From Mytilus edulis (taxonomy: Eukaryota), in contig NC_092346.1 in the NCBI RefSeq assembly GCF_963676685.1, positions 51,212,001 through 51,276,000 on the forward strand: DNA of 64,000 nt, read 5' to 3'. A program made the translations under genes and the position numbers. The notes below the pieces were generated by a model, which made no database searches, was not told the origin of the DNA, and saw nothing but the letters and a program-made list of their open reading frames with translations. Positions 11,301-62,971 of this stretch are shown here, piece after piece (the first letter of the stretch is position 1; each line of letters begins with the position of its first letter).

Positions 11301-13417
11301 CTCGTTCGCTATGTCCGTTTCTGTATACGGACTTTTATTTTAAATTGAAGTACATAAATCTATTAGGAAAAAGTATGTATGGCTTTGTTTTCTGCTATGA
11401 CGGTTTTTAGTGCATTTTACAAGTTACTGATGTCATGTTACGTTCCGAAATGGATCTGGGGTAGAAAATGATACCGACTATTGTATACTGGATAACTTTT
11501 ACCAATTTTGACTATATCATTTAGATTCGAATACCAAATCATTCCAAATATTAAGATGGACACATAAATCAGGCACAATGGAATTTATATAGACTCAAAA
11601 TTTGCAGTGCATATAAATTTTACATGGGTTGTGTGCGTTTCCGTAATGCTGTGAATTTCTTACTAGTATATAATTTCTTACAACAATACAATAATCATTT
11701 CTTAGTATGATCATTTACCTTCAATGAGTTTTACAATGGTCGATCAGACGATCAGAAATTGCTTAACGTATCCCCATGACTAAGTCATACTACTAATGGA
11801 CAACCGTTGATAAAAAGCCATATCTATAAACTTATTAGAGTTACCCCTCTTGACATTAAGTTCAAGAAAAATACTGCATGTGTAGTAACATAAAAATTAC
11901 TGCAATGAAATCTTTGATATCATTCACAATTAAGAAGGAAAAAAGGACTTAAAATAAACACAATTTAAATTTACTCATTACAAAATTCATAAATAATATT
12001 GTTGAGAAAAGGTACCGCTAAAGATGCAGTACAAATAACGTTTCTTCAGAGTTTTTTTTTATTTTTCATTTGCAAACATTAATATAAGGGGTAAATATAT
12101 ATATTCCCAATACGCAGAAATGTAATGCGCCCAACATATCCTCGGCAGTTCATTTTTCCCCTCTAAAAATGACTTTAATTTCGATATCTTAAAATATTCA
12201 ATGATCTCCAAAATCTGTGGTCATGATATCACCTAATCAACATTCATATTAAAATCTTGATCGTGTGCACGTTATTAAGTCACGTGCTTTTATTACTTTA
12301 GTTACAAGTACATGTATGATATCTAAAATGATTTACGGGTTTGAACATCGGCAGCAGCTGCCTCTTGTTTATTTTTGTTAAAACCATATTGTGTAACATT
12401 GTTTTTAAAAAACGTTTTTATTCATGGTAGTTACACCCTAAAACAGCATCCAGTTTGTCATAAGGTTTAGCCTATTTTAAAAATATCTAACCAAAAGTTT
12501 ATCCGCTTGCCATTACCTTCTTTGAAAATCTCAGTCATGTTCTGGTTCCGTTCAAGACATTTTTATCATAACCTATCAAACGTCATTTTTGTAAAAAAAA
12601 TTATATATATCGTTATATCGTTTCGTTTCGTTTCGTAATTGTCATTGTGTTTCGATTTTGTTTCTCATTCAAGCACAACCCACCTAATGGTCCACGTAAT
12701 CGTCATTTAAAACGATGTCAGAACACTGCTTAAAAGATAATTGTAAACTTAATAATGGAATTTTTTAATGGAAAGTGCATCGATACTTGCACATTTTATG
12801 TAAAATATCTGTTTAAAACTAAATTTGTGAAACAAGTCATGATTGAGGTTCGTAAATTATTATCTTTCCTTCATATATTTCGAAGCAAGAGTAAAAAAAC
12901 AACGTTTTTATTCTATCTTGGTATGTATCTGTATCGACCAAGAACGTCTACGAATTGGAGATGAAACATGTTAAATTGTCTCAAGATATATTTGAATAAT
13001 AAAGGCAACAGTTGAAACTCGAACAAGACACCCATAAGAAAAAGTGACAATGACTGAGTTGTGTTATTCTAATCACTATGGTATATCTTGATTTAAAAGC
13101 TTTAATATTTTTTTACTTTTTTTTTAAAATGTATTGAAACTTTGATGATCAATTCAATTCCAACATGAGTGTTTTAACAGCCCAAGAATAATAACAGAAT
13201 CGGTACTCAAATGCCAAGCTTTTATTCAAAAGTGTTTATATGTAATGCGACCGTGCAAGTGACACGTGTATTTAACAAACAAGCATGCATATAAAAGAAA
13301 ATTACTAGATTCCCACCTGACCCATATAAAAAAAAAAGTCATAATTAATTGTACTTAATTGAAATGAAAACAATAAAATGATTTACTAGTATCCGAGCAG
13401 AAAGTTGATGAACCAGG

Positions 13418-14616
13418 CAGGGATGGGGTAATTGAAAATGCAATGGTAATTAAGTGTATTGCATTACAATTTTCCATGTAATTGGATGTAATGTGTTTTA
13501 ATTACATATAATGGTAATTTAATTAATTACAATAAAAAAAGCATGTAATGCTCAATTACTTTTGAATTACATTTCAATTACATGTACATTTATGGTATTA
13601 AGGATTTATATTTGATAATAAAATTGTAAAATTATATTTATTTTTCAAATATTGATATCACATATTTTTCAATATATGAAGTCTGTAATTTATTATGAAT
13701 TTTTTATATTATTTATTTGACCTACAGAATGTTTTTTTTCTAAATAATCTTATAATTTTGATAAGTAATTAATCACCTTGAAAACAAAAACAAAAAAATA
13801 TGTAAAAAATCGTTGGTAGACAGTTCATTTATAATTTAAAATCACTGCACACAATCATTTTGTCAAATTAGTATACACAAAAGGATTATAAAAATAAAAA
13901 GTAACAGCTGTAAAAACAAACAGCAATTAATCAAATTAAAATGTCAAGGGACAATGCAACTATTACATGTATTTTATCTAATTAGCAAAATGTTGCTAAT
14001 ATTTAGACATTATATACATTGTTTGTACTTAAAATTATTTTCAATATTGTGACAAACATCCTTTTTTATATTTTTGATTTAAAAATATACTTTTAATTTA
14101 TTTATCATTTTTTTATTTATACTATGTTTGATTTAAATGACTTAAAAATCTATTTCTGAGATGTCAAAATATCCGTTAATGTATTGGCAAGTTAATAGGA
14201 ACAAATTCCCTCTCCCATCAACACATCTTCTGATCATGGAAGTATAGTTCATGGAAGTATAATACGTCCATGTTCTGATCAAGCAATATCTGCCACATTA
14301 GCTCCTGTCGAAGGACTATTAAGATTTGCTGTCTGTCAAAGTGTTCAGACCAGAGAGATGCAGACTTAATGACAAAACATTAAAATTTCTAATAATAATC
14401 AAATGCTACTTACATGAATATTTTGCATATGCATTATACATACATGTATTATATTGTTAAAAAATGTTATGATAAAATGTAATGTGTAATTAATTAATTA
14501 CTTTAGTAAAGTAATTGTAATTTACTGTGTAATGTGTAATTAGTGTAATTGATCAATTTTGCAATGTAATGTATAATTTAATTAATTACATTCCAATGTT
14601 ATTGACCCCAAGTCTG
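13418..14616. mobile_element. hAT-type MITE, duplicate of 864-2062
   Basis: Same TIRs and GAACCAGG TSD. Confidence 0.85.
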
Positions 14617-15039
14617 GAACCAGGGTTATGTCAAGGAGCGTCTCTTCCTTTTTCTAAAAAAAAGTTCATCGGAAGATACCAAGACACTGTCGATAGTTAT
14701 TCAGTATCAACTTCACAACAAATACAAGATTGTACTCCTATTTTTGACATTTATACCTATTATCTCTGTTCGTTTTGTTCACACATCGTTGTCAATATAA
14801 TAGAATCGTATGTGATACAAGTGGGAGGTTTAGAAAGCTATTATAAAAACCAGGTTTAATCCACCATTCTCTACACAAGAAAATGCGTGTACCAAGTCAG
14901 GAATATGACATTTGTTATTAATTCGTTTGATTTCGCCATTTGGTTAGGGACTTTTCTTTTTGAATTTTCCTCAGAGTTCAATATTTTTGTGATGTATACA
15001 CTGTAAAATAACTGGTTAGTAACGAACTAAGCACTTTAT

Positions 15040-16317
15040 TTACCGAAGAAAGAAATATAAGGCACAACCAATGCCACCAAGGAACATAATGGTAATAATA
15101 GCAAAACCTGTTTTCCCACATTTACCTCTACAACACTGTTCACAATAAACTTCACATTTTACGTAACAGTTAAGACAACACTGACAATGACACAAATCAA
15201 ACAGAATTCCCCCGATAATTGTGAGCAGATAGCGAAAAGAAAAGCCAACAAAAAATACAATTAAAAAATATACCAATGCTGGACGATTCAAATTTAAGAA
15301 ACCGAAATATCCGCATAAAACAGCTAAAAGGATTGAACCATATCCGCCTAACACGTGCAAGGACACAATACGACAAAATTCTTTAGGACAAAGAATGTTT
15401 TTGCGTTTTGGAAGTAAACTGTGTAACACATAATAATAAAGAAAAATTGTTTCTATAGCAACCGATACTACCAGAGAAGCTCCACACGTTTTAAAAATAG
15501 CTTCCTCCGCGAGCTGTCCTGCCAAGTCACAGACAAACTTATTATACAAGAACTGCTTTGTTCCATTAAGATGCTGCTTGCTGCTTTGTTCTGCAATTCC
15601 GGATCTTGACTCCGCTACCTTAATTCTTGTCTCTGCTTCGTCAATTATATTTGCTCCTATCTTATTGCCACACTGGGGAACATGTTCTAGCGTCCCGACA
15701 CTATAACTGACGATCGCAGCAACAATAATTGTGACGTAAGCACGCCGAACTAATGAACCGGCAATAGCGCCTAATGATGATACTAGTAATGCCGCTCTTA
15801 ATCCTACTTCCCTCGAATCGATCAAAAAATTAAAACAATCTGCACGACATCGGTTATCATCCACCTGTTTACATGAACTTTTACCAGTAAGGATATACTT
15901 GACAACATGCTCACAATTATTCCAGGAAAGTTGATAATCTCGTTCTCCAAGTCGTTCGTAAAGGCGTTTCCATGCTTTGCTAAAATCGTCATCATTCTTT
16001 GGATAATCAGGGTTTTTAATTAAATGTAATCCTGGTATTTCTGTTGTGCCATATCCTAACAGATCATGATCACTTGAAATTGTCTGACATGTAAATTTTC
16101 CGGATCCTCTGCTGTCTTCGGATAAAATTTCTGCAGAACTTGTAAAATGGGCAACTGTGAATTCATCTGTTTTAACATTTTTATTGGGTATTCTTATAAC
16201 AATAAAGTGGTGATAATATTCTCCAGTGCAAAACTTGCCGCTTCTTCTTACTCTGAAGTGTGCAAATGGTGTTGCTTTGTCTTCAAAATCATTGTAATCT
16301 TTCACATGATATTCGTC
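15040..16317 (-). CDS. Duplicate of the LRAT-domain multi-TM protein terminal exon
   Basis: Translation identical to 2486-3763. Confidence 0.75.
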   Translation of the reverse strand, partial: DEYHVKDYNDFEDKATPFAHFRVRRSGKFCTGEYYHHFIVIRIPNKNVKTDEFTVAHFTSSAEILSEDSRGSGKFTCQTISSDHDLLGYGTTEIPGLHLIKNPDYPKNDDDFSKAWKRLYERLGERDYQLSWNNCEHVVKYILTGKSSCKQVDDNRCRADCFNFLIDSREVGLRAALLVSSLGAIAGSLVRRAYVTIIVAAIVSYSVGTLEHVPQCGNKIGANIIDEAETRIKVAESRSGIAEQSSKQHLNGTKQFLYNKFVCDLAGQLAEEAIFKTCGASLVVSVAIETIFLYYYVLHSLLPKRKNILCPKEFCRIVSLHVLGGYGSILLAVLCGYFGFLNLNRPALVYFLIVFFVGFSFRYLLTIIGGILFDLCHCQCCLNCYVKCEVYCEQCCRGKCGKTGFAIITIMFLGGIGCALYFFLR

Positions 16318-17361
16318 CTGAAAATAAAAAGGAACCGATAGCTGAAAACTGCAAAACAGCCGCCACTCGCATGCACATTTTGAAAGAAAAAATAAGTTCA
16401 TTGTTAGCAACTTATACTTCCTTTATTGTTAATAGATGGCCAATACCCAATAGTATTCTTTAACAACAAGAAGTCAGTGTAGTTATTAGAAACTTTAACT
16501 GGTATAAAGAAATTTTCCAGGGCCCTTATACGCAGTGGCTATTTTTGTCTCCATTTTAAAACAATTGGACAAGGGTGTTCCTGACTTTGATATGTACCTG
16601 TCCCAAGTAAGGAGCCTGTTATTCAATGGTTGTCGTTTGTTTACGTGTTAACTTTTTGTATTCGTTCTTTTTTTGTACACAAATAAGGCCGTTTGTTTTT
16701 CTTGTTTGAATTATTTTACATTGTCATTTCGGGGCCTTTTATAGCAGACTATGCGATATGGGCTTTAATCATTATTGCAGGCCGTACGGTGACCTATAAT
16801 CGTTAATTTGTGTATTATTGATTTTGGTGATCTTGCTGAGAGTTGTCTCATTTGCAATCGTCATTAATTTTTGTAATCTTGTCTTTCATCTTTTGTTTAT
16901 GTGCTTTGTCTATATTTTCCTGGGAGTTCAGTGCTTTTTGTGGTTTTACTTTTTTGTATATTAATACAAAATTTGACAAAACAAAGAAAACTAAATTATC
17001 ATTTCGAAATAAATCCCAATGCCATATCACAAACCTTCCAGCCGTTTGATCACAAAGACCCTTGTTCGTGTTAAACATTCCAAGTGTATAACATTTATTC
17101 AATCTATTCCGGGATACATACGAACATTGATATCAAGAAAGCCTCGCTTTTGACACCCTTACAGACTGGTGGATTTTAAAACAAAGGACATACTTAAAAA
17201 AAGAAAAAAATGCAGAATATTTTGATTGTTACAGAATACTGAAACCAATACATTATCAGCATTTGGGAAAAACAGTTTTGAGCAAACTTGTAATTCTTTG
17301 TCTTCGTATGACAATAAATAAACTCATCATAGCTAGATGCCAGGATTAAAATTTTATATTT

Positions 17362-17405
17362 ACGCCAGACGCGCGTTTCGTCTACAAAAGACTCATCAGT
17401 GACGC
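17362..17405 (-). ncRNA. Minimal type I hammerhead ribozyme (duplicate of 4808-4851)
   Basis: Same sequence as 4808-4851. Confidence 0.85.
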
Positions 17406-17849
17406 TCGAATCAAAAAATGTTTAAAGGCCAAAATAAAGTACGAAGTTGAAGAGAATTGAACACCAAAAGTTCCAAAAGGTTTTGCCAAAAACAGTTAAG
17501 GTAAATCTATTCATTAGGTAGAAAAGCCTTAGGTTTTGAAAAATTCAAAGTTTAGTTAACAGTTAATTTATAGTAATGAACATATCAATGATAACTCAAG
17601 TCAACACAGAAGTGTAAGCATATTTCATATCAACAGGATACAACAAAAATTCTAAAGTGAAATACTCAGACGAAGTGTGAAAAAATACCATGGAATTTGG
17701 GAAACTCTACAGAACAATTTGACATAAATGAAAATTGTGTATATGTCGGATTGGAACATTGAGACTTTTTAGGAGGCACATCTATTCTAGACGATCCGGT
17801 ACATAGTAAATTTGCTGGTTGGTCTTTTTTATAAACTTCTCTCTCTCTA

Positions 17850-19312
17850 TATATAACTCGTCTAAACATCAACCCAACAATGTTAGATCTGTAAATTTGC
17901 TTTCGCAAATCTTTTGTTCTTCACTCGCCGGGATTCGAACCCATGCTACTGAGATATCATGACACAAAATTGCCTGCACTGTAGCCGTCCCGCTAGACCA
18001 CACGACCACCTGGGCCAAATAATAAAGCTTCGGGCGGCCGTGTGTTACCTTTCCTCGTCAGTTTTAATCTAGCGGCGTACTACAGTACATGCTATATAAG
18101 GCATTGAGATGTTATTGTTACAGATCAGCTCAATTATCTATAGTAAAGGATCCTACAAATTAATGCAAGATACAGTTACAGAAAATAATTATGTTAATAA
18201 GTACGTCTGAGTCAGTTACGTCTGAGCCAGTGACAACTCTACAACAGACTTATCCATCGGATCACCAGCAGTGATGGTGACACATGGCTGTGTACATTAT
18301 GTATATACAAGTCGTCTAAACATCAACCCAACAATGTTAGATCTGTAAATTTGCTTTCGCAAATTTTTTGTTCTTCCCTCGCCGGGATTCGAACCCATGC
18401 TACTGAGATATCGTGACACCAAATCACCTGCACTGTAGCCGTCCCGCTAGACCACACGACCACATGGGCAACATAAAAATGAAGCTTTCGGTGGCCGGGT
18501 GTTACCTTTCCATGTCACTTTTAATCTAGCGTCGTACTACATTAACATGATATATAAGGCATGAAGATGTTATTCTTACAGATCGGCTAAATTATCTATA
18601 ATAAAGGATCCTACAAATTAATGTAAGATACAGTCACAGATAATAATTATAACTATAAGTACGTCTGAGCCAGTGACAACTCTACAACAGACTTATCCAT
18701 CGGATCACCAGCAGTGATGGTGATACATGGATGTGTACATTATGTATATGCAACTCGTCTCAACATCAACCTAACAATATGTTAGATTTGTAAATTTGCT
18801 TTCGCAAATTTTTTGTTCTTCCCTCGCCGGTATTCGAACCCATGCTACTGAGATATCGTGACACCAAATCGCCTGCACTGTAGCCGTCCCGCTAGACCAC
18901 ACGACCACCTGGGCTTCATAAAAATGAAGCTTTAGGTGGCCAGATGTTACCTTTCCACGTCAGTTTTAATCTAGCGTCGTACTACAGTACATGATATATA
19001 AGGCATGAAGATGTTATTTTTACAGATCAGCTAAATTATCTATAGTAAAGGATCCTACAAATTAATGTAAGATACAGTTACAGAATATAATTATATTTTA
19101 TAAGTACGTTTGAGCCAGTGACAACTCTACAACAGACTTATCCATCGGATCACCAGCAGTGATGGTGATACATGGCTTTGTACATTATGTATATACAACT
19201 CGTCTAAACATCAACCAAACAATTTGAACATCGGTATACTACTGTTGCCTTTATTTAGACCTGTACATTTGCTTTCGCAATTTTTTTGTTCTTCCATATA
19301 TATATATATATA
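17850..19312 (-). repeat. Array of three full plus one partial ~445-bp tRNA-derived, self-complementary units bounded by (TA)n
   Basis: Unit anchors at 17861, 18315, 18758 and 19203 (spacing 454/443/445); A and B boxes on the minus strand. Confidence 0.9.
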
Positions 19313-19864
19313 TAAAAGCCAGGTAACAAATTTAAACTCTTCAGCAGTAAACTACCTTTAAAAAAACCTGTCCAAAAAGTCAGTTATAAAGCTTCAACAG
19401 CAATAAATAAACAACGACCTGATTTATGATAAAACAAACGAACAATAAGTATAACAGACAACCCAGGACTGAATTACCTTTAACGGTTTAAGTGTTTATA
19501 ATTAACGTATACTTACATCATTGCTTTTACATGCAGCATTTCTCTTGTCTTCATTTTGTTTTCCTACACTATCGTCACTATATTTCTTTTCTGCATTTCC
19601 CAAATATGCACTTTGAACTTTCCCCTCTTCATTCTTTTGCTGTTGTTCATCCTTCCATTATAAAATATATAAGAATAATAGAAACTTATTTATTCAGCTG
19701 ATGTAATGACTTAAATGAGGTGAACTATTATTCTTCTTTGCAACCAAAAATCTAAAATTTGACTACAATTTCTTATAACTATGACCTTGACGCTAAACGT
19801 AGATAAGGTATTATAGCTAGCTATAAAATCAGGTTTAATTTAACATTTTTACGTAAGAAAATCC

Positions 19865-35413: not shown

Positions 35414-35680
35414 CTAGGTGGACGGGTGGTCTAGAGCGATTGATACAGTGCACGTGGTGTTGTCTAGAGCGATGGATACAGTGCACGTGGTGTTGTCTAG
35501 AGCGATGGATACAGTGCACGTGGTGTTGTCTATCTAGCGACGGATACAGTGCACGTGGTGTTGTCTAGAGCGATGGATACAGTGCACGTGGTGTTGTCTC
35601 GATATCTTCATAGCATACGTTTGAATCTGGACGAGGAAAGAACATAATTTGCTTCAGCAAATTTGCAGATTTAACATATA
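35414..35680 (+). mobile_element. Degenerate monomer of the tandem-family tRNA-like head with an internal 5 x ~33-bp expansion (35431-35598)
   Basis: Colinear with the reverse complement of the 445-bp unit head and tail; unit CTAGAGCGATGGATACAGTGCACGTGGTGTTGT. Confidence 0.7.
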
Positions 35681-49572: not shown

Positions 49573-52500
49573 GACATCAAGTGGTTTATACTAATTATAC
49601 ATATCTACATCAATTGATATGTTATATTCAAACAAACCTCTAATCTACTTGTTGCACAAAGGAAAGGAACAATCAATGTTTTTGCGACCTTTTAAAATCC
49701 GTGAAGGGTCGGTTTTTACCGGTCTGATTTGATCATACAAAAGTAAATATTCTCGCTATGAACTTGCACCATATAAGTGCTATAACAAATGTTCTCTTTT
49801 TCTTTCTTTAAGGTAATGAATGTGTATAACCAAAATCACTATCCTTTAGTAATATACAATTGATTTATTGGTTGATTGTTGGTGTTTTAACGCCACTTTT
49901 AAGCGCCACACTTGGGCTATATCGTGGCGACCAGTTTTTATTGTTGGAAGAAGCCGGAGTGCCTGGAGAAAACCACGGACCTGCAATAGGAAAACTGACA
50001 ACCCTAGTCAACTTAGATTGAAGTCGGGTGCACCCGCACGGGCGGGTTTTGAACTCCCAACCTCAGTGTTGACTAGCTAGTAATTACATAAGTGGAACTA
50101 CTTAGACCACTTACTATTAATATGAAAAAGGACGACGAAAATATCTCGTCTACGTGGGTATTCTTTATATTTCTATTTCCTATGATCAATTTAAAAATGG
50201 ATTCGTCGTCTGATCCAACAGTGCTTTTCTACAGAAGTTGGAACCGTACAAACAAACTCGTGTTATTCTTTATTTTTTTATTATTATTTGTTTTAACCTG
50301 GAAACTCTTACTAAGAGAAAGATCACTCGGATTCCAAAAACAAATTGATATTCCAACAAACAGTTGGGTTCCAACCTTTTCTGTTGTACAGACCTATTAG
50401 CTGATTTGTGTACTCCTTTATGGCAGATTTCATACAAAAACTTCTATGAGAAAAAAGGAAAAAGGATCTTATAAAATTTCTTTCATGTCACTTTCAGATA
50501 TCTTGTCCACTCACTCAATACCTCCTCCACTTCCAGCGAGTGCTCGGTCAAATAACATATAAAAAGAATCAGATGAAGGATTTTCTCGAAAATTGGAGGT
50601 CTATACTACATTTTTTTTCTTTTCTCGATAGCCAGATGGACGACTAGAATACAAATGACAAAGTTGATGATTGGACAATCCAATCGTTAACTTTACATTC
50701 CTGTGCAGTAAAATACTCAAAGCACCCTCATATGTAGTTTATGATCTAATTGATACGCTTACTATCATGGATAGCGACATATTTTAGCGGGCTTAGACCT
50801 TAAAATACCGGAATATTGATATAATCTACCGTTTGTGACATTTTGCATGAGTATGGCATCGCATGGCGTATACAACAGCCATTGCACTCACGAGACGCTA
50901 ACTCTGTCGACGCAACCGATTTCGTTCCTTTCAATGTTCATACAATTGCAGCATTTTTTGTGTGTGTCTTTTTAGATATCTGGATTTGTCTATAAAATTG
51001 CTTAATGAGATTAGAACATCGGTGAACTTCTGTTGTAAATATGTAAATCATTCAAGTCCACAACTAAAGTTCGTTCAAGGAAGACAGTAAATGGATTAAT
51101 ATATTTATATTTGCAAAGTTCAGACAGCGGCATAACGTCCATGACTGTGAAGTTATCAACACATCAGTTTTGTCTTCTATTGACAAGCTGCGGTACACAT
51201 TCAGCATCACAGTGGCAGTAAATTTTGGAATTGAACTCCTACTTTTTTATTATGTGTTGCACGATGCCAAGAAAGAATAATCTAATAGTTTGTGAGCAAT
51301 CTTTAGATAGCTAACCAAATGATGGCATTTTATGTAAACACTTATCCCGGTATTGTGGTAGAGTATCTTTTACTTCTTTGACCTAGGCCGGCAGACGACC
51401 ATAAGCTTACCATGTCCAAGGCGGACTCAACCAACGGAATTTTTAATTTCTATTGATATTTATTTTCTTTCTGTCTATAATTTCAGGATGTTTATAGATA
51501 TAACATATTTTATTCATGAGTTTTGTCTGCTGAAGAGGGACAAATTAAAGAACAGTTTAGAATTGAATGTTGACAAAAAAAATCCTCAATATGTCTCCTG
51601 AAATGCCGTCGTTGATGTACAAAACTTGAAATAACCTTAGCTGTACTTGACAAAACGTTTTCTAATTTTAGATCCTAATCCTCTTCAACTTCGTACTTCA
51701 TTTGACTTCATGATGAATTACTGACATGATATGTCGCCTCACTGAAAATTAGAACATAAGATAATGCAAAAATAACAAGGTTTGTATTGTTCCAAAGTGC
51801 TTGGTATTGTTATTTTGAATTAAAGTGTGAATTGTTCTAAACAATACTAGTACCAAGCCATTTGAAACAATACATACCTTGTTTTTTTGTGTAATCTTTT
51901 GTTATAATTTTATATATCAAAAATATATTTATTTTTCGCTCCCCTCCTCAGAACCACTTTAGTCAAGGCGTTTTCTTTAGAGTAAAGTGTGAATTGTTCT
52001 GAAAAATGTCAAGCACTTTGGAACAATACAGACCTTGTTAATATAATAGCAGAATCTTATGTTATAATCTAATAAATCGAAAGTATATTTGTTTTCATAA
52101 GAGTAGGTACTTGGATGTAAAAACTGTCATCATTTTGCATTGTTTATTTATAAAGAAAGCAAAGAATATTTCTGATTTCATTTCTCTATTCTAAAAATGT
52201 AAAGTGATCTATAAAATCATTTAACGATTATATAAGTGTTATCTTTCTCATAACACCATATTGTACATTTTCATTTAATTAATTATTTTAGTAGAGAACT
52301 TTTTTTCTTGAAAACTGACGGCAACTGAAATTTCAGCTTTGCATTATTAAAAAGTAATCTATAAAATCATAAAACCATTATATAGAAAAAAAGTAAAATC
52401 ACAAAAATACTGAACTCCTTAAGTCCTAATTACATGGCAAAATCAAAAGCTAAAACACATCGAACAAATGGACAACCACTGTTATATTTTTGATTGGAAC

Positions 52501-53199
52501 AGCCATTTTCAATGTGGATTAAACCTGGCTTTATAGCTACATGTAACTACTCATCTCACTTGTATGACAGTTCCATAAAATTCCATTATATTGAGATCGA
52601 TCTGTGAAAAAACCAAACAGACATAATAGGTAAAAATGTCAAAACGTCACAAAAAGGGGTACATCAGTCACCATTGTGTCATTATCTTAATCACAATAAA
52701 ACAAACATATGTGTAAACAAACATTGACACAATAACACAATGACGGGATATGTAAGCACAGAGCCATGTGATATATACGAAAAAAACACAAAACGGCATT
52801 TAGACAAAGTATATTAGCAAAAATGAAATATATCAATACAAACACAGAAAACTAAAGACTAATCTTTGTGTAAATGATCACTACTTATCTTAAGGAGAGG
52901 CGAAATATACCAGAGGGACATTCAAACTCATAGATCGAAAACAAAACTGACAACGCCATGGCCAATAAAGAAAAAGATATGTATATATACAATCAAAAGT
53001 AAAAACGACACAACATTAAAAAAAACAAAGACCTAGCAGCACGAACCCCACCAAAAACTGGCGAGATCGCATGTGCTCCTGATGAGTGAGCAGATCCTGC
53101 TCCCCATGTGGCATCCGTCGTGTTGCTCATGTTATCAAAAACCCATAACATTGCAACTCAAAATGTACATTGCTTCCTATATTTTGAACTAATACTATT
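49573..53199 (+). repeat. Diverged segmental duplication, copy A (copy B = 59163-62971)
   Basis: Colinear, highly similar, with scattered SNPs and two large indels. Confidence 0.92.
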
Positions 53200-59162: not shown

Positions 59163-62100
59163 GACATCAAGTGGTTTATACTAATTATACATATCTACAT
59201 CAATTGATATGTTATATTCAAACAAACCTCTAATCTACTTGTTGCACAAAGGAAAGGAACAATCAATGTTTTTGCGACCTTTTAAAATCCGTGAAGGGTC
59301 GGTTTTTACCGGTCTGAATTTGATCATACAAAAGTAAATATTCTCGCTATGAACTTGCACCATATAAGTGCTATAAAAAATGTTCTCTTTTTCTTTCTTT
59401 AAGGTAATGAATGTGTATAACCAAAATCACTATCCTTTAGTAATATACAATTGATTTATTGGTTGATTGTTGGTGTTTTAACGCCACTTTTAAGCGCCAC
59501 ACTTGGGCTATATCGTGGCGGCCAGTTTTTATTGTTGGAAGAAGCCGGAGTGCCTGGAGAAAACCACGGACCTGCAATAGGAAAACTGACAACCATAGTC
59601 AACTTAGATTGAAGTCGGGTGCACCCGCACGGGCGGGTTTTGAACTCCCAACCTCAGTGTTGACTAGCTAGTAATTACATAAGTGGAACTACTTAGACCA
59701 CTTACTATTAATATGAAAAAGGACGACGAAAATATCTCGTCTACGTGGGTATTCTTTATATTTCTATTTCCTATGATCAATTTAAAAATGGATTCGTCGT
59801 CTGATCCAACAGTGCTTTTCTACAGAAATTGGAACCGTACAAACAAACTCGTGTTATTCTTTATTTTTTTATTATTATTTGTTTTAACCTGGAAACTCTT
59901 ACTAAGAGAAAGATCACTCGGATTCCAAAAACAAATTGATATTCCAACAAACAGTTGGGTTCCAACCTTTTCTGTTGTACAGACCTATTAGCTGATTTGT
60001 GTACTCCTTTATGGCAGATTTCATACAAAAACTTCTATGAGAAAAAAGGAAAAAGGATCTTATAAAATTTCTTTCATGTCACTTTCATATATCTTGTCCA
60101 CTCACTCAATACCTCCTCCACTTCCAGCGAGTGCTCGGTCAAATAACATATAAAAGAATCAGATGAAGGATTTTCTCGAAAATTGGAGGTCTCTACTTCA
60201 TTTTTTTTTCTTTTCTCGATAGAGACTCAGATGGACGACTAGAATACAAATGACAAAGTTGATGATTGGACATATAGCGACATATTTTAGCGGGCTTAGA
60301 CCTTAAAATACCGGAATATTGATATAATCTACCGTTTGTGACATTTTGCATGAGTATGGCATCGCATGGCGTATACAACAGCCATTGCACTCACGAGACG
60401 CTAACTCTGTCGACGCAACCGATCTCGTTCCTTTCAATGTTCATACAATTGCAGCATTTTTTGTGTGTGTCTTTTTAGATATCTGGATTTGTCTATAAAA
60501 TTGCTTAATGAGATTAGAACATCGGTGAACTTCTGTTGTAAATATGTAAATCATTCAAGTCCACAATTAAAGTTCGTTCAAGGAAGACAGTAAATGGATT
60601 AATATATTTATATTTGCAAAGTTCAGACAGCGGCATAACGTCCATGACTGTGAAGTTATCAAAACATCAGTTTTGTCTTCTATTGACAAGCTGCGGTACA
60701 CATTCAGCATCACAGTGGCAGTAAATTTTGGAATTGAACTCCTACTTTTTTATTATGTGTTGCACGATGCCAAGAAAGAATAATCTAATAGTTTGTGAGC
60801 AATCTTTAGATAGCTAACCAAATGATGGCATTTTATGTAAACACTTATCCCGGTATTGTGGTAGAGTATCTTTTACTTCTTTGACCTAGGCCGGCAGACG
60901 ACCATAAGCTTACCATGACCAAGGCGGACTCAACCAACGGAATTTTTAATTTCTATTGATATTTATTTTCTTTCTGTCTATAATTTCAGGATGTTTATAG
61001 ATATAACATATTTTATTCATGAGTTTTGTCTGCTGAAGAGGGACAAATTAAAGAACAGTTTAGAATTGAATGTTGACAAAAAAAATCCTCAATATGTCTC
61101 CTGAAATGCCGTCGTTGATGTACAAAACTTGAAATAACCTTAGCTGTACTTGACAAAACGTTTTCTAATTTTAGATCCTAATCCTCTTCAACTTCGTACT
61201 TCATTTGACTTCATGATGAATTACTGACATGATATGTCGCCTCACTGAAAATTAGAACATAAGATTATGCAAAAATAACAAGGTTTGTATTGTTCCAAAG
61301 TGCTTGGTATTGTTATTTTGAATTAAAGTGTGAATTGTTCTAAACAATACTAGTACCAAGCCATTTGAAACAATACAGACCTTGTTATTTTGTGTAATCT
61401 TTTGTTATAATTTTATGTATCAAAAATATATTTATTTTTTGCTCCCCTCCTCAGAACCACTTTAGTCAAGGCTTTTTCTTTAGAGTAAAGTGTGAATTGT
61501 TCTGTAAAATGTCAAGCACTTTGGAACAATACAGACCTTGTTAATATAATAGCAGAATCTTATGTTATAATCTAATAAATCGAAAGTATATTTGTTTTCA
61601 TAAGAGTAGGTACTTGGATGTAAAAACTGTCATCATTTTGCATTGTTTATTTATATAGAAAACAAAGAATATTTCTGATTTCATTTCTCTATTCTAAAAA
61701 TGTAAAGTGATCTATAAAATCATTTAACGATTATATAAGTGTTATCTTTCTCATAACACCATATTGTACATTTTCATTTAATTAATTATTTTAGTATAGA
61801 ACTTTTTTTCTTGAAAACTGACGGCAACTGAAATTTCAACTTTGCATTATTAAAAAGTAATCTATAAAATCATAAAACCATTATATAAAAAAAAAAGTAA
61901 AATCACAAAAATACTGAACTCCTTTTGTCCTAATTACATGGCAAAATCAAAAGCTAAAATACATCGAACAAATGGACAACCACTGTCATATTTTTGATTT
62001 GAACAGCCATTTTCAATGTGGATTAAACCTGATTTTATAGCTACATGTAACTACTCATCTCACTTGTATGACAATGACAGTTCCATAAAATTCCATTATA

Positions 62101-62971
62101 TTGAGATTGATCTGTGAAAAAAACAAACAGACATAATAGGTAAAAATGTCAAAACGTCACAAAAAGGGGTACATCAGTCACCATTGTGTCATTATCTTAA
62201 TCACAATAAAACAAACAAATGTGTAAACAAACATTGGCACAATAACACAATGACGGGATGTATAAGCACAGAGCCATGTGATATATACGAAATAAACACA
62301 AAACGGCATTTAGACAAAGTATATTAGCAAAAAGAAATATAGCAATACAAACATATACCATAGAGCAATAAATACAATGACATCATACGTAAAAGAAAAA
62401 CACAAAAAGGGATATAGGCAAAGCATTTTATGACTTTCAGACACTTTACAGTCAAAAGTCAAACAGCAGTTTTCTTATTCCGTGAAATTGTCCACATTAA
62501 CATTAAGATTACTTTGTAACCCGGATTTGTTTTCGCTTAATAGATTAAAGAGTATGGAACAGCGGAATACTGTTGTTACCTTTATTGATAGACAAACAAA
62601 CAGCAGTCTAAAAACGCAACATAGAAAACTAAAGACTAATCTTTTTGTAAATGACCACTACTTATATCAAGGAGGGGCGAAATATACCAGAGGGACATTC
62701 AAACTCATCGATCGAAAACAAACTGACAACGCCATGGCAAAAAAGAAAAAGATGTATATATACAAACAAAAGTAAAAACGACACAACATAAAAAACCAAA
62801 GACCTAGCAGCACGAACCCCACCAAAAACTGGGGGAGATCGCATGTGCTCCTCATGAGTGAGCAGATCCTGCTCTCCATGTGGCATTCGTCGTGTTGCTC
62901 ATGTTATCACAAACCCGGAACATTGCAACTCAAAATGTACATTGCTTCCTATATTTTGAACTAATACTATT
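59163..62971 (+). repeat. Diverged segmental duplication, copy B
   Basis: Matches 49573-53199; has an extra ~270 bp near 62350-62620 and lacks ~95 bp present near 50676-50770. Confidence 0.92.

Follow-up and report, generated by a model that had tools for sequence, protein, structure and literature searches.

A Mytilus edulis tandem repeat family that inserts into (TA)n, is likely driven by Penelope-like elements and is likely present as circular RNA

The tandem array described here lies in a 64,000-nucleotide stretch of Mytilus edulis DNA (the window), and is one of thousands of dispersed copies. The interpretation we favour, and consider probable as a whole, is that the array is an old insertion of a non-coding element, present in high copy number, with (TA)n as its target and 5'-truncated tandems as its inserted form, and that this element is likely copied by the reverse transcriptases (RTs) of Neptune-like Penelope elements from a likely circular, likely Pol III-made RNA of ~441 nt.

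The array and its family

On the minus strand of the window ~3.2 units of ~443 bp follow one another head-to-tail (TRF period 445, 3.1 copies, 17848-19223), and both TRF and unit-by-unit alignment confirm the spacer-less ~445-bp tandem array proposed in the initial annotation. The array is bounded by a (CT)n(TA)n patch at ~17840-17855 and by (TA)n at 19297-19314. With window position 18914, the G of GCCCAGG, taken as unit 1, the insertion reads 5' to 3' as unit 93-133, a 31-bp foreign insert, 135-436, 1-436, 1-437 and 1-168, and then TA. Its ends, first described as circularly permuted, do sit in (TA)n, but neither is an arbitrary permutation. On the left the array stops at the family's most frequent fixed 3' end (unit 168-171), and on the right it is 5'-truncated at unit ~93 and interrupted by the foreign insert. 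At the left flank the tail of a Penelope-like element (PLE), PLE-911, and that of the array meet tail-to-tail at one common (CT)n(TA)n site. The features are as follows.

17782..17855, plus strand: 3'-terminal 74 bp of PLE-911, as far as the second of its fixed 3' ends (identity to the L230 end 90.5% over 74 bp, E=4e-23)
17848..18015, minus strand: terminal partial unit, unit 1-168 (head and commonest fixed 3' end), running into TATATA
18018..18469, minus strand: full unit of the old subfamily, with B box intact and a downstream junction without T4
18475..18914, minus strand: full unit of the old subfamily, 91.6% identical to the young unit
18650..18785 (approximate), minus strand: body, unit ~130-265, with both fixed 3' ends and weak homology to the PLE-911 3' tail
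18829..18840, minus strand: B box (GGTTCGAATACC in the window copy; GGTTCGAATCCC in most copies)
18897..18907, minus strand: A box (TGGTCGTGTGG), unit 8-18, from the sequence and its alignment to genomic tRNA-Leu(AAG)
18913..18930, minus strand: tip hairpin that spans the junction of two units and has its T5 loop at 18920-18924; in 4 of 6 pairs both sides have changed
18931..19028 (approximate), minus strand: antisense arm pairing with the head, with the bulge CTGACG(T/A)GGAAAGGTAACAC
18920..19223, minus strand: 5'-side partial unit, unit 135-436, from BLAST pieces
19224..19254, no strand assigned: 31-bp foreign insert within the first partial unit, from the gap between BLAST pieces and the sequence
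19255..19295, minus strand: 5'-truncated start of the insertion, unit 93-133
19297..19314, no strand assigned: (TA)n target repeat, from the sequence

The tip hairpin is predicted to serve as terminator/start and as joining site. The T5 run reported at its tip is present at 18920-24 and 18475-79 and absent from the junction near 18016, while the leftmost 450 bp, credited with a single other T4, hold two (17966-69 and 18182-85). All six stem arms that had been given coordinates, and four further motif pairs, were found as written.

Window positions 1-6015 and 12555-18569 are 100% identical over 6,015 bp, the first copy stopping at a 100-N gap; this is probably an assembly duplication, so that the array at 5294-6015 would not be a second insertion. 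Another old copy, on the minus strand at 7856-9495, is interrupted at unit 101; the insert of ~1.15 kb (8089-9235), with ends resembling ~22-bp inverted repeats, is probably a DNA transposon. A decayed piece of a 475-bp sister family (see below) lies on the plus strand at 7504-7786, an ancient-subfamily head at 35418-35677 contains a 33-bp tandem of about five copies, and a ~3.2-kb stretch occurs twice (49573-52844 and 59163-62353) with about 98% identity.

One 22-mer of the unit had 7,174 exact matches in the genome (1.37 Gb, 14 large contigs) and its reversed control had none. Diagnostic sites split the units into an old subfamily, to which the window array belongs, intermediates and a young subfamily. 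The same layout is found in an ancient subfamily (~75% identity) and in a young sister family (L187:1500-1974), the copies of which are 99% identical; units measure 441 bp in the family and 475 bp in its sister, and are both tandem and dispersed. The family is young and active, and the window copy is an old member of it. No description of it was found in the literature or the supplements searched; an earlier entry in a Repbase or Dfam library is possible.

Each unit has the tRNA-like A/B-box head that had been claimed for it. In alignment to genomic tRNA-Leu(AAG) the window, young and sister heads were equalled by 0, 2 and 0 of 1,000 shuffles, respectively, and the A and B boxes are kept in four lineages; the A-B spacing is ~14 nt longer than in tRNA-Leu(AAG), and neither ARAGORN nor Rfam called a tRNA on the head. 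Tandem tRNA-Leu clusters with a period of ~1.28-1.33 kb were seen in L274-L278, and in L278 ARAGORN also calls a tRNA-SeC on the opposite strand.

The head-sense strand folds better than shuffled sequences and than the other strand. Linear folding gave z=-3.8 (0/100 shuffles as good), and circular folding of the window unit gave z=-3.6 for the head-sense and -0.8 for the antisense strand, that of a young unit -5.1 and -3.25 (40 shuffles each). Of the rod that had been proposed, the predicted fold retains a long arm, but its middle is branched. Pairing was assessed on 34 distinct junction-spanning rows with a 37-pair arm-plus-tip structure, in which 91% of cells pair as against 27-45% when slid. 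Ten pairs change on both sides, four of them in the 6-bp tip, and the changes fall between four lineages; the compensatory changes called for by the initial annotation are in this sense present in arm and tip hairpin, with pair-level covariation counts not above those of shuffles (162/500). By inspection, what appears to be the clearest sign of maintained pairing is that the arm of the sister family matches its own, different head, with the register shifted by one column.

Insertion anatomy and a probable Penelope partner

The insertions show the anatomy of PLEs. We compared 117 pieces from loci chosen by the 22-mer, overlapping duplicates having been dropped, a choice that favours ends past unit 166. 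Their 3' ends fall at unit 160-182 in 73 cases, at 253-276 in 23 and elsewhere in 21; those of the sister family lie at unit 166 and 258. The 3' flank is TA-rich in 60 of the 117, compared with 76 of 2,000 background 20-mers. The 5' ends are scattered overall, most loci hold 0.3-1.5 units, 112 of the 117 pieces cross at most one junction, and inverted 5' pieces are common. These three traits (5' truncation, partial tandems and inverted 5' copies) are those that part of PMC8557442 describes for PLEs, and internal RT initiation at two sites is recorded in vitro for one PLE in a section of PMC11167929. Priming is internal, and 61 of the 117 pieces continue upstream beyond the head into the end of the preceding unit, so that SINE-style monomeric copying from the RNA 3' end is rejected; target site duplications (TSDs) were not discernible, and the likely partner is not of the LINE type that such copying entails. 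Nor do the insertions have the LTRs or fixed termini of TRIM/Helenus elements, their 5' ends being variable. Both fixed 3' ends coincide with UA-rich patches of the unit, and priming would therefore probably occur by pairing of the unit RNA with nicked (TA)n.

The driver is likely a Neptune-like Penelope element, a component that the initial annotation had missed. Several young PLE families came up in a GIY-YIG search; their intact ORFs (784, 791-799, 911 and 959 aa) encode an RT and a C-terminal endonuclease. These elements end in (TA)n and their ORFs carry a CX2-5CxxC linker, as in Neptune/Nematis; 'Neptune-like' is a tentative clade label. The 784- and 791-799-aa PLEs (L225:1154-2344, L228:5052-6320) contain, upstream, one more ORF (~400-420 aa), which matches nothing in Pfam. 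The unit and the PLEs have one target type, (TA)n. A young unit is adjacent at 8 of 14 PLE loci picked irrespective of the unit, and a unit lies within 300 bp of 11 of 30 PLE-911 ends, a co-location that the common target may explain.

PLE-911 and PLE-959 each have, like the unit, two 3' ends ~90-100 nt apart, each behind an AGAC motif, which at the PLE-911 ends takes the form AGAC-N-TATA, as in the unit. A profile of unit 95-275 (14 sequences) matches the terminal 130 nt of PLE-911 (E=0.0029 over 44.5 kb), the two 3' ends being colinear, and the sister unit aligned to this tail with a score of 51 versus 24.5 +/- 3.1 for shuffled sequences (0/500). The young and window units taken alone were not significant against it (47 and 135 of 500 shuffles), and loose-gap alignment of whole units to PLE UTRs beat no shuffles. 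Together these comparisons suggest a weak 3' similarity to an autonomous PLE. Chimeras of unit and PLE were found at L225, L234 and L237, with overlaps of 2-5 nt; they involve three different PLE families, one lies away from any TA site and one is an inverted hybrid. Their junctions are suggestive of trans-mobilisation by a PLE protein, and we consider it very probable that the family is Penelope-mobilised. Naiad was rejected as partner: an intact 1,053-aa Naiad ORF with an N-terminal GIY-YIG is present (L232:2867-6028), its start by eye like that of Naiad_Mgal, and shows no significant similarity to the unit, and four unit motifs had no relevant match in the Naiad supplement.

RNA, the T-run junction and the template

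Four RNA-seq runs, from other individuals, were mapped to a young copy with the junction central, 41 bp of flank and unit 221-264 missing; the alleles match the youngest subfamily and not the window copy. Two stranded runs from one study gave 4,727 reads in 8.7 M records and 6,022 in 8.25 M (about 540 and 730 per million). Over unit 265-400, 98-99% of reads (97% for the second run) come from one strand, and over the head about 91% do; with the usual library chemistry this strand should be head-sense. The abundant, strand-specific RNA (>90% head-sense in both stranded runs) supports the initial annotation on this point. Depth at the junction was ~950-1,070 and ~1,250-1,390, or 50-85% of that elsewhere, against 0-4 in the flank, and no start or end pile of molecules was called in these runs. 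The linear monomer ending at the T-run that the initial annotation had predicted does not describe most of the sequenced RNA; reads that cross the junction without an end pile indicate that the stable form is circular or multimeric. Loose ends at the unit 171 exit numbered 47 and 86, with a drop in depth of about 17%, so that such exits amount to at most about a fifth of junction crossings. A third, apparently unstranded run gave 433 reads in 12.7 M, 68% of them continuing into other sequence, and a fourth yielded contigs only. Several alleles occur at intermediate frequency in the RNA. The RNA is likely a closed circle; its reads are continuous over the junction, but short reads of this kind fit the circular RNA of a retrozyme and a long multimer alike.

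In the DNA, private variants occur in every unit of young arrays, including the first and last (19 of 19 heads in the longest array read), as one circular template predicts, and as DNA-level expansion also would; the 69T variant of the longest array is not strictly private, 23 of its 42 matches lying outside that array. Diagnostic sites agree in 934 of 1,077 comparisons within arrays versus 56% between arrays, and some composite sites or arrays mix haplotypes. Raw distance is modestly informative, at 0.055 within and 0.069 between arrays (lower within in 118 of 155 pairs). Taking RNA and DNA together, we regard a circular template as rather more probable than its alternatives combined.

The junction itself varies between insertions and is common within arrays. 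T7 is modal (563 of 1,106 youngest-type junctions), and among 61 insertions tallied by hand from the first 100 junctions listed, 34 had T7, 10 were length variants (T5-T10), 15 (25%) had an A in the run and 2 were of other kinds. In 12 of those 15 the A follows at least four T, mostly with the 7-nt loop retained. The flanking TCT and GAGA changed once among these 61. Within young units T>A changes occur at 18 of 427 loop sites versus 5 of 3,795 sites elsewhere, and nearby A5 and A4 runs are constant (65/65 and 42/43). Non-modal loops repeat across all junctions of an array (15, 4, 3, 3, 2, 2 and 2), with three discordant multi-junction arrays among those listed; junction variants may be inherited as sub-lineages, and hence not be independent events. 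The sister family has the same junction pattern. Insertion 5' ends fall at -5..-1 in 15 of 220 pieces versus ~3 expected (5 chaining artefacts dropped), and in 7 of 117 versus ~2 in an unbiased subset, a pile that TA microhomology can inflate; seven have their first base precisely at GAGA, ATGAA or GTGAA, on the purine that first follows the T-run. These junction and 5'-end data would fit a Pol III monomer, running from -4/-5 to a U-run, whose ends are joined before reverse transcription.

The following route would account for these observations. The internal A/B boxes would recruit Pol III to initiate 4-5 nt ahead of the head and terminate one unit on, in the T-run. The antisense arm and tip hairpin, in the predicted fold with its covariation, would hold the ends together, and the loop would be closed by a host ligase, in some cases once U or A has been added to the U tail. 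After a nick in (TA)n by a Penelope endonuclease, the Penelope RT would initiate internally on the RNA, at the UA-rich unit ~171 or ~265, where insertions are seen to end, circling the template until it drops off and so leaving 0.2 to several units with one common junction. Some arrays would later expand in DNA, as their higher-order repeats suggest. That the circle forms by joining of Pol III ends is, from the sequence patterns at hand, a tentative proposal to which we give somewhat less than even weight. Against it stand the RNA junctions, about 80% full T7 with only 2-3% carrying A at the listed position, which vary less than those in the DNA and less than random termination should leave them, and the T-run at the tip, which is not universal, the ancient subfamily having spread mostly without a T4 there; loop variants may, as noted, also be inherited. 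The young consensus also has a T4 mid-unit. In its strongest form the proposal would be of an animal circular RNA that needs neither ribozyme nor splicing. Ligation of the U-tail of a Pol III transcript to its start, the two being held by pairing, would yield a 441-nt circle, and this circle would have templated rolling-circle copying of a Penelope-dependent SINE class in at least four lineages and would remain active today; that this form holds in full is doubtful.

An unlikely explanation dispenses with circles: Penelope RT would copy long read-through RNA of longer arrays, made by Pol II or leaky Pol III, and unequal exchange would lengthen the arrays. Arrays of 15-19 near-identical units do exist, the L134 array has higher-order repeats, from which it follows that DNA-level duplication also occurs, and the uniform T7 of RNA junctions, as in DNA, and the rarity of the tip terminator in the ancient subfamily suit it as well. 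However, read-through of loci as short as these (1.4 units) should give exits at unit 171 at least as numerous as junction crossings, where the RNA shows about a fifth at most, so that the RNA is either circular or from long arrays. Host read-through further predicts both strands, in contrast to RNA that is >90% head-sense with several intermediate-frequency alleles; a T7 run should terminate Pol III; and the A enrichment specific to the junction is left unexplained.

The circle might instead be that of a retrozyme in disguise, in which an unrecognised ribozyme or a host nuclease makes one cut per unit in a multimer, with ligation to follow; we consider this quite improbable. Mussels form circles by the hammerhead route (in part of PMC7229834), the bulge word CUGACG(A/U)GGAAA stands hammerhead-like opposite a GUC, and AAGGUAACAC and GAA(A)G are kept across lineages. 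Against this, the bulge word is not kept in the two active families, reading CUGACGU in the youngest subfamily and CUUCCGUGAC in the sister. Rfam finds no ribozyme in the unit, though it also missed a minimal hammerhead in PLE-799 (L227:6720-6775) and so is insensitive; a hammerhead descriptor that finds this one (1 of 4 PLE UTR controls) finds none in six units on either strand, so that the type I hammerhead per unit of non-LTR retrozymes is not seen here. Self-cleavage and ligation should moreover be seamless, not A-enriched at a T-run. HDV-like, twister and hairpin ribozyme readings were dropped after comparison by eye with their consensus features. By eye, the PLE-959 3' UTR (L231) has a CCGAUGA...GAAA variant and that of PLE-911 (L230) a decayed form.

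Marginally less probable again is a linear Pol III monomer with paired ends, on which Penelope RT would jump from the 5' end to the adjacent 3' end, junction reads being products of the library RT. The pile of insertion 5' ends at -5..-1 and a tip hairpin that would hold the ends together accord with such jumping, but a junction depth of 50-85% without an end pile is too high and precise for a library artefact, and repeated jumps should vary, whereas odd loops recur exactly within arrays. Finally, although carried arrays are common in bivalves (part of PMC7492417), an internal satellite of a Helitron/Helentron or other DNA transposon is effectively refuted for the loci read, where flanks are unrelated except for (TA)n, no common or conserved flanking modules were found, and the insertions, with their inversions, fixed 3' ends and polar 5' truncation, look like products of reverse transcription.

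Known elements and significance

The family works like a non-LTR retrozyme but lacks the hammerhead, and has a SINE head but is not copied in SINE style. Metazoan non-LTR retrozymes, including a 350-390 bp family of Mytilus galloprovincialis (parts of PMC7229834 and bioRxiv 10.64898/2026.07.22.740005), likewise have short non-coding units, dispersed tandem arrays, abundant structured RNA and a proposed circular template and PLE partner. The retrozyme-like tandem insertion without a hammerhead that had been read from the window sequence is supported. The present family differs in its units (441/475 bp versus 170-400 nt), the lack of a detected hammerhead, its tRNA-derived A/B-box head, its antisense arm and its variable T-run junction. 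A Pol III promoter in a retrozyme-like repeat, as proposed in the initial annotation, is not unprecedented: Schistosoma Sm-alpha is a tRNA-derived, SINE-like repeat described as satellite DNA, but it also has an active type I hammerhead, together with a tRNA-Gln head (PMC2770079 and PMC6155905, in part). The available portions of the Sm-alpha descriptions mention neither an antisense arm nor a PLE-derived tail.

With PLEs (Neptune/Nematis/Naiad, and Chlamys elements such as MRC1) the family has in common 5' truncation, partial tandems, 5' inverted copies, microsatellite targets and internal RT initiation at two sites, according to parts of PMC8557442 and PMC11167929, and the non-autonomous Chlamys element MRC1 is, in the text available, also multicopy and head-to-tail with 3' similarity to its partner. 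Unlike PLEs it has no ORF and has a Pol III-type head. Its 3' ends lie ~94 nt apart rather than within a 30-40 nt tail (same sources, in part), and they are UA-rich patches matching the target, whereas Poseidon, in the portion available, primed without homology in vitro. Bivalve tRNA-derived SINEs also combine an A/B-box tRNA head with a 3' part related to a partner retroelement, but the Mytilus SINEs in 28 rows of PMC11481361 (245-418 bp, with TSDs, ATC-type tails and Nimb/CR1 partners) all differ from the family in both length and tail. Helenus/TRIMp3 elements are tRNA-derived, non-autonomous, able to form tandem arrays and present in Mytilus; Helenus-1_MyGa, as given in part of PMC10886601, has 183-bp LTRs, a 125-bp interior and 4-bp TSDs, whereas the present family has no LTR termini and no discernible TSDs.

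If the proposed route is correct, Penelope elements would join the SINE partners with sequence evidence, retrozyme-like circles would require no ribozyme, and a host activity that joins Pol III ends would be indicated. Being short, abundant and naturally optimised, the unit RNA would also lend itself to work on internal initiation and tandem formation by Penelope RT, a step that the relevant parts of PMC11167929 and PMC8557442 leave open. With its youth and copy number, the family is relevant to genome variation in mussels.
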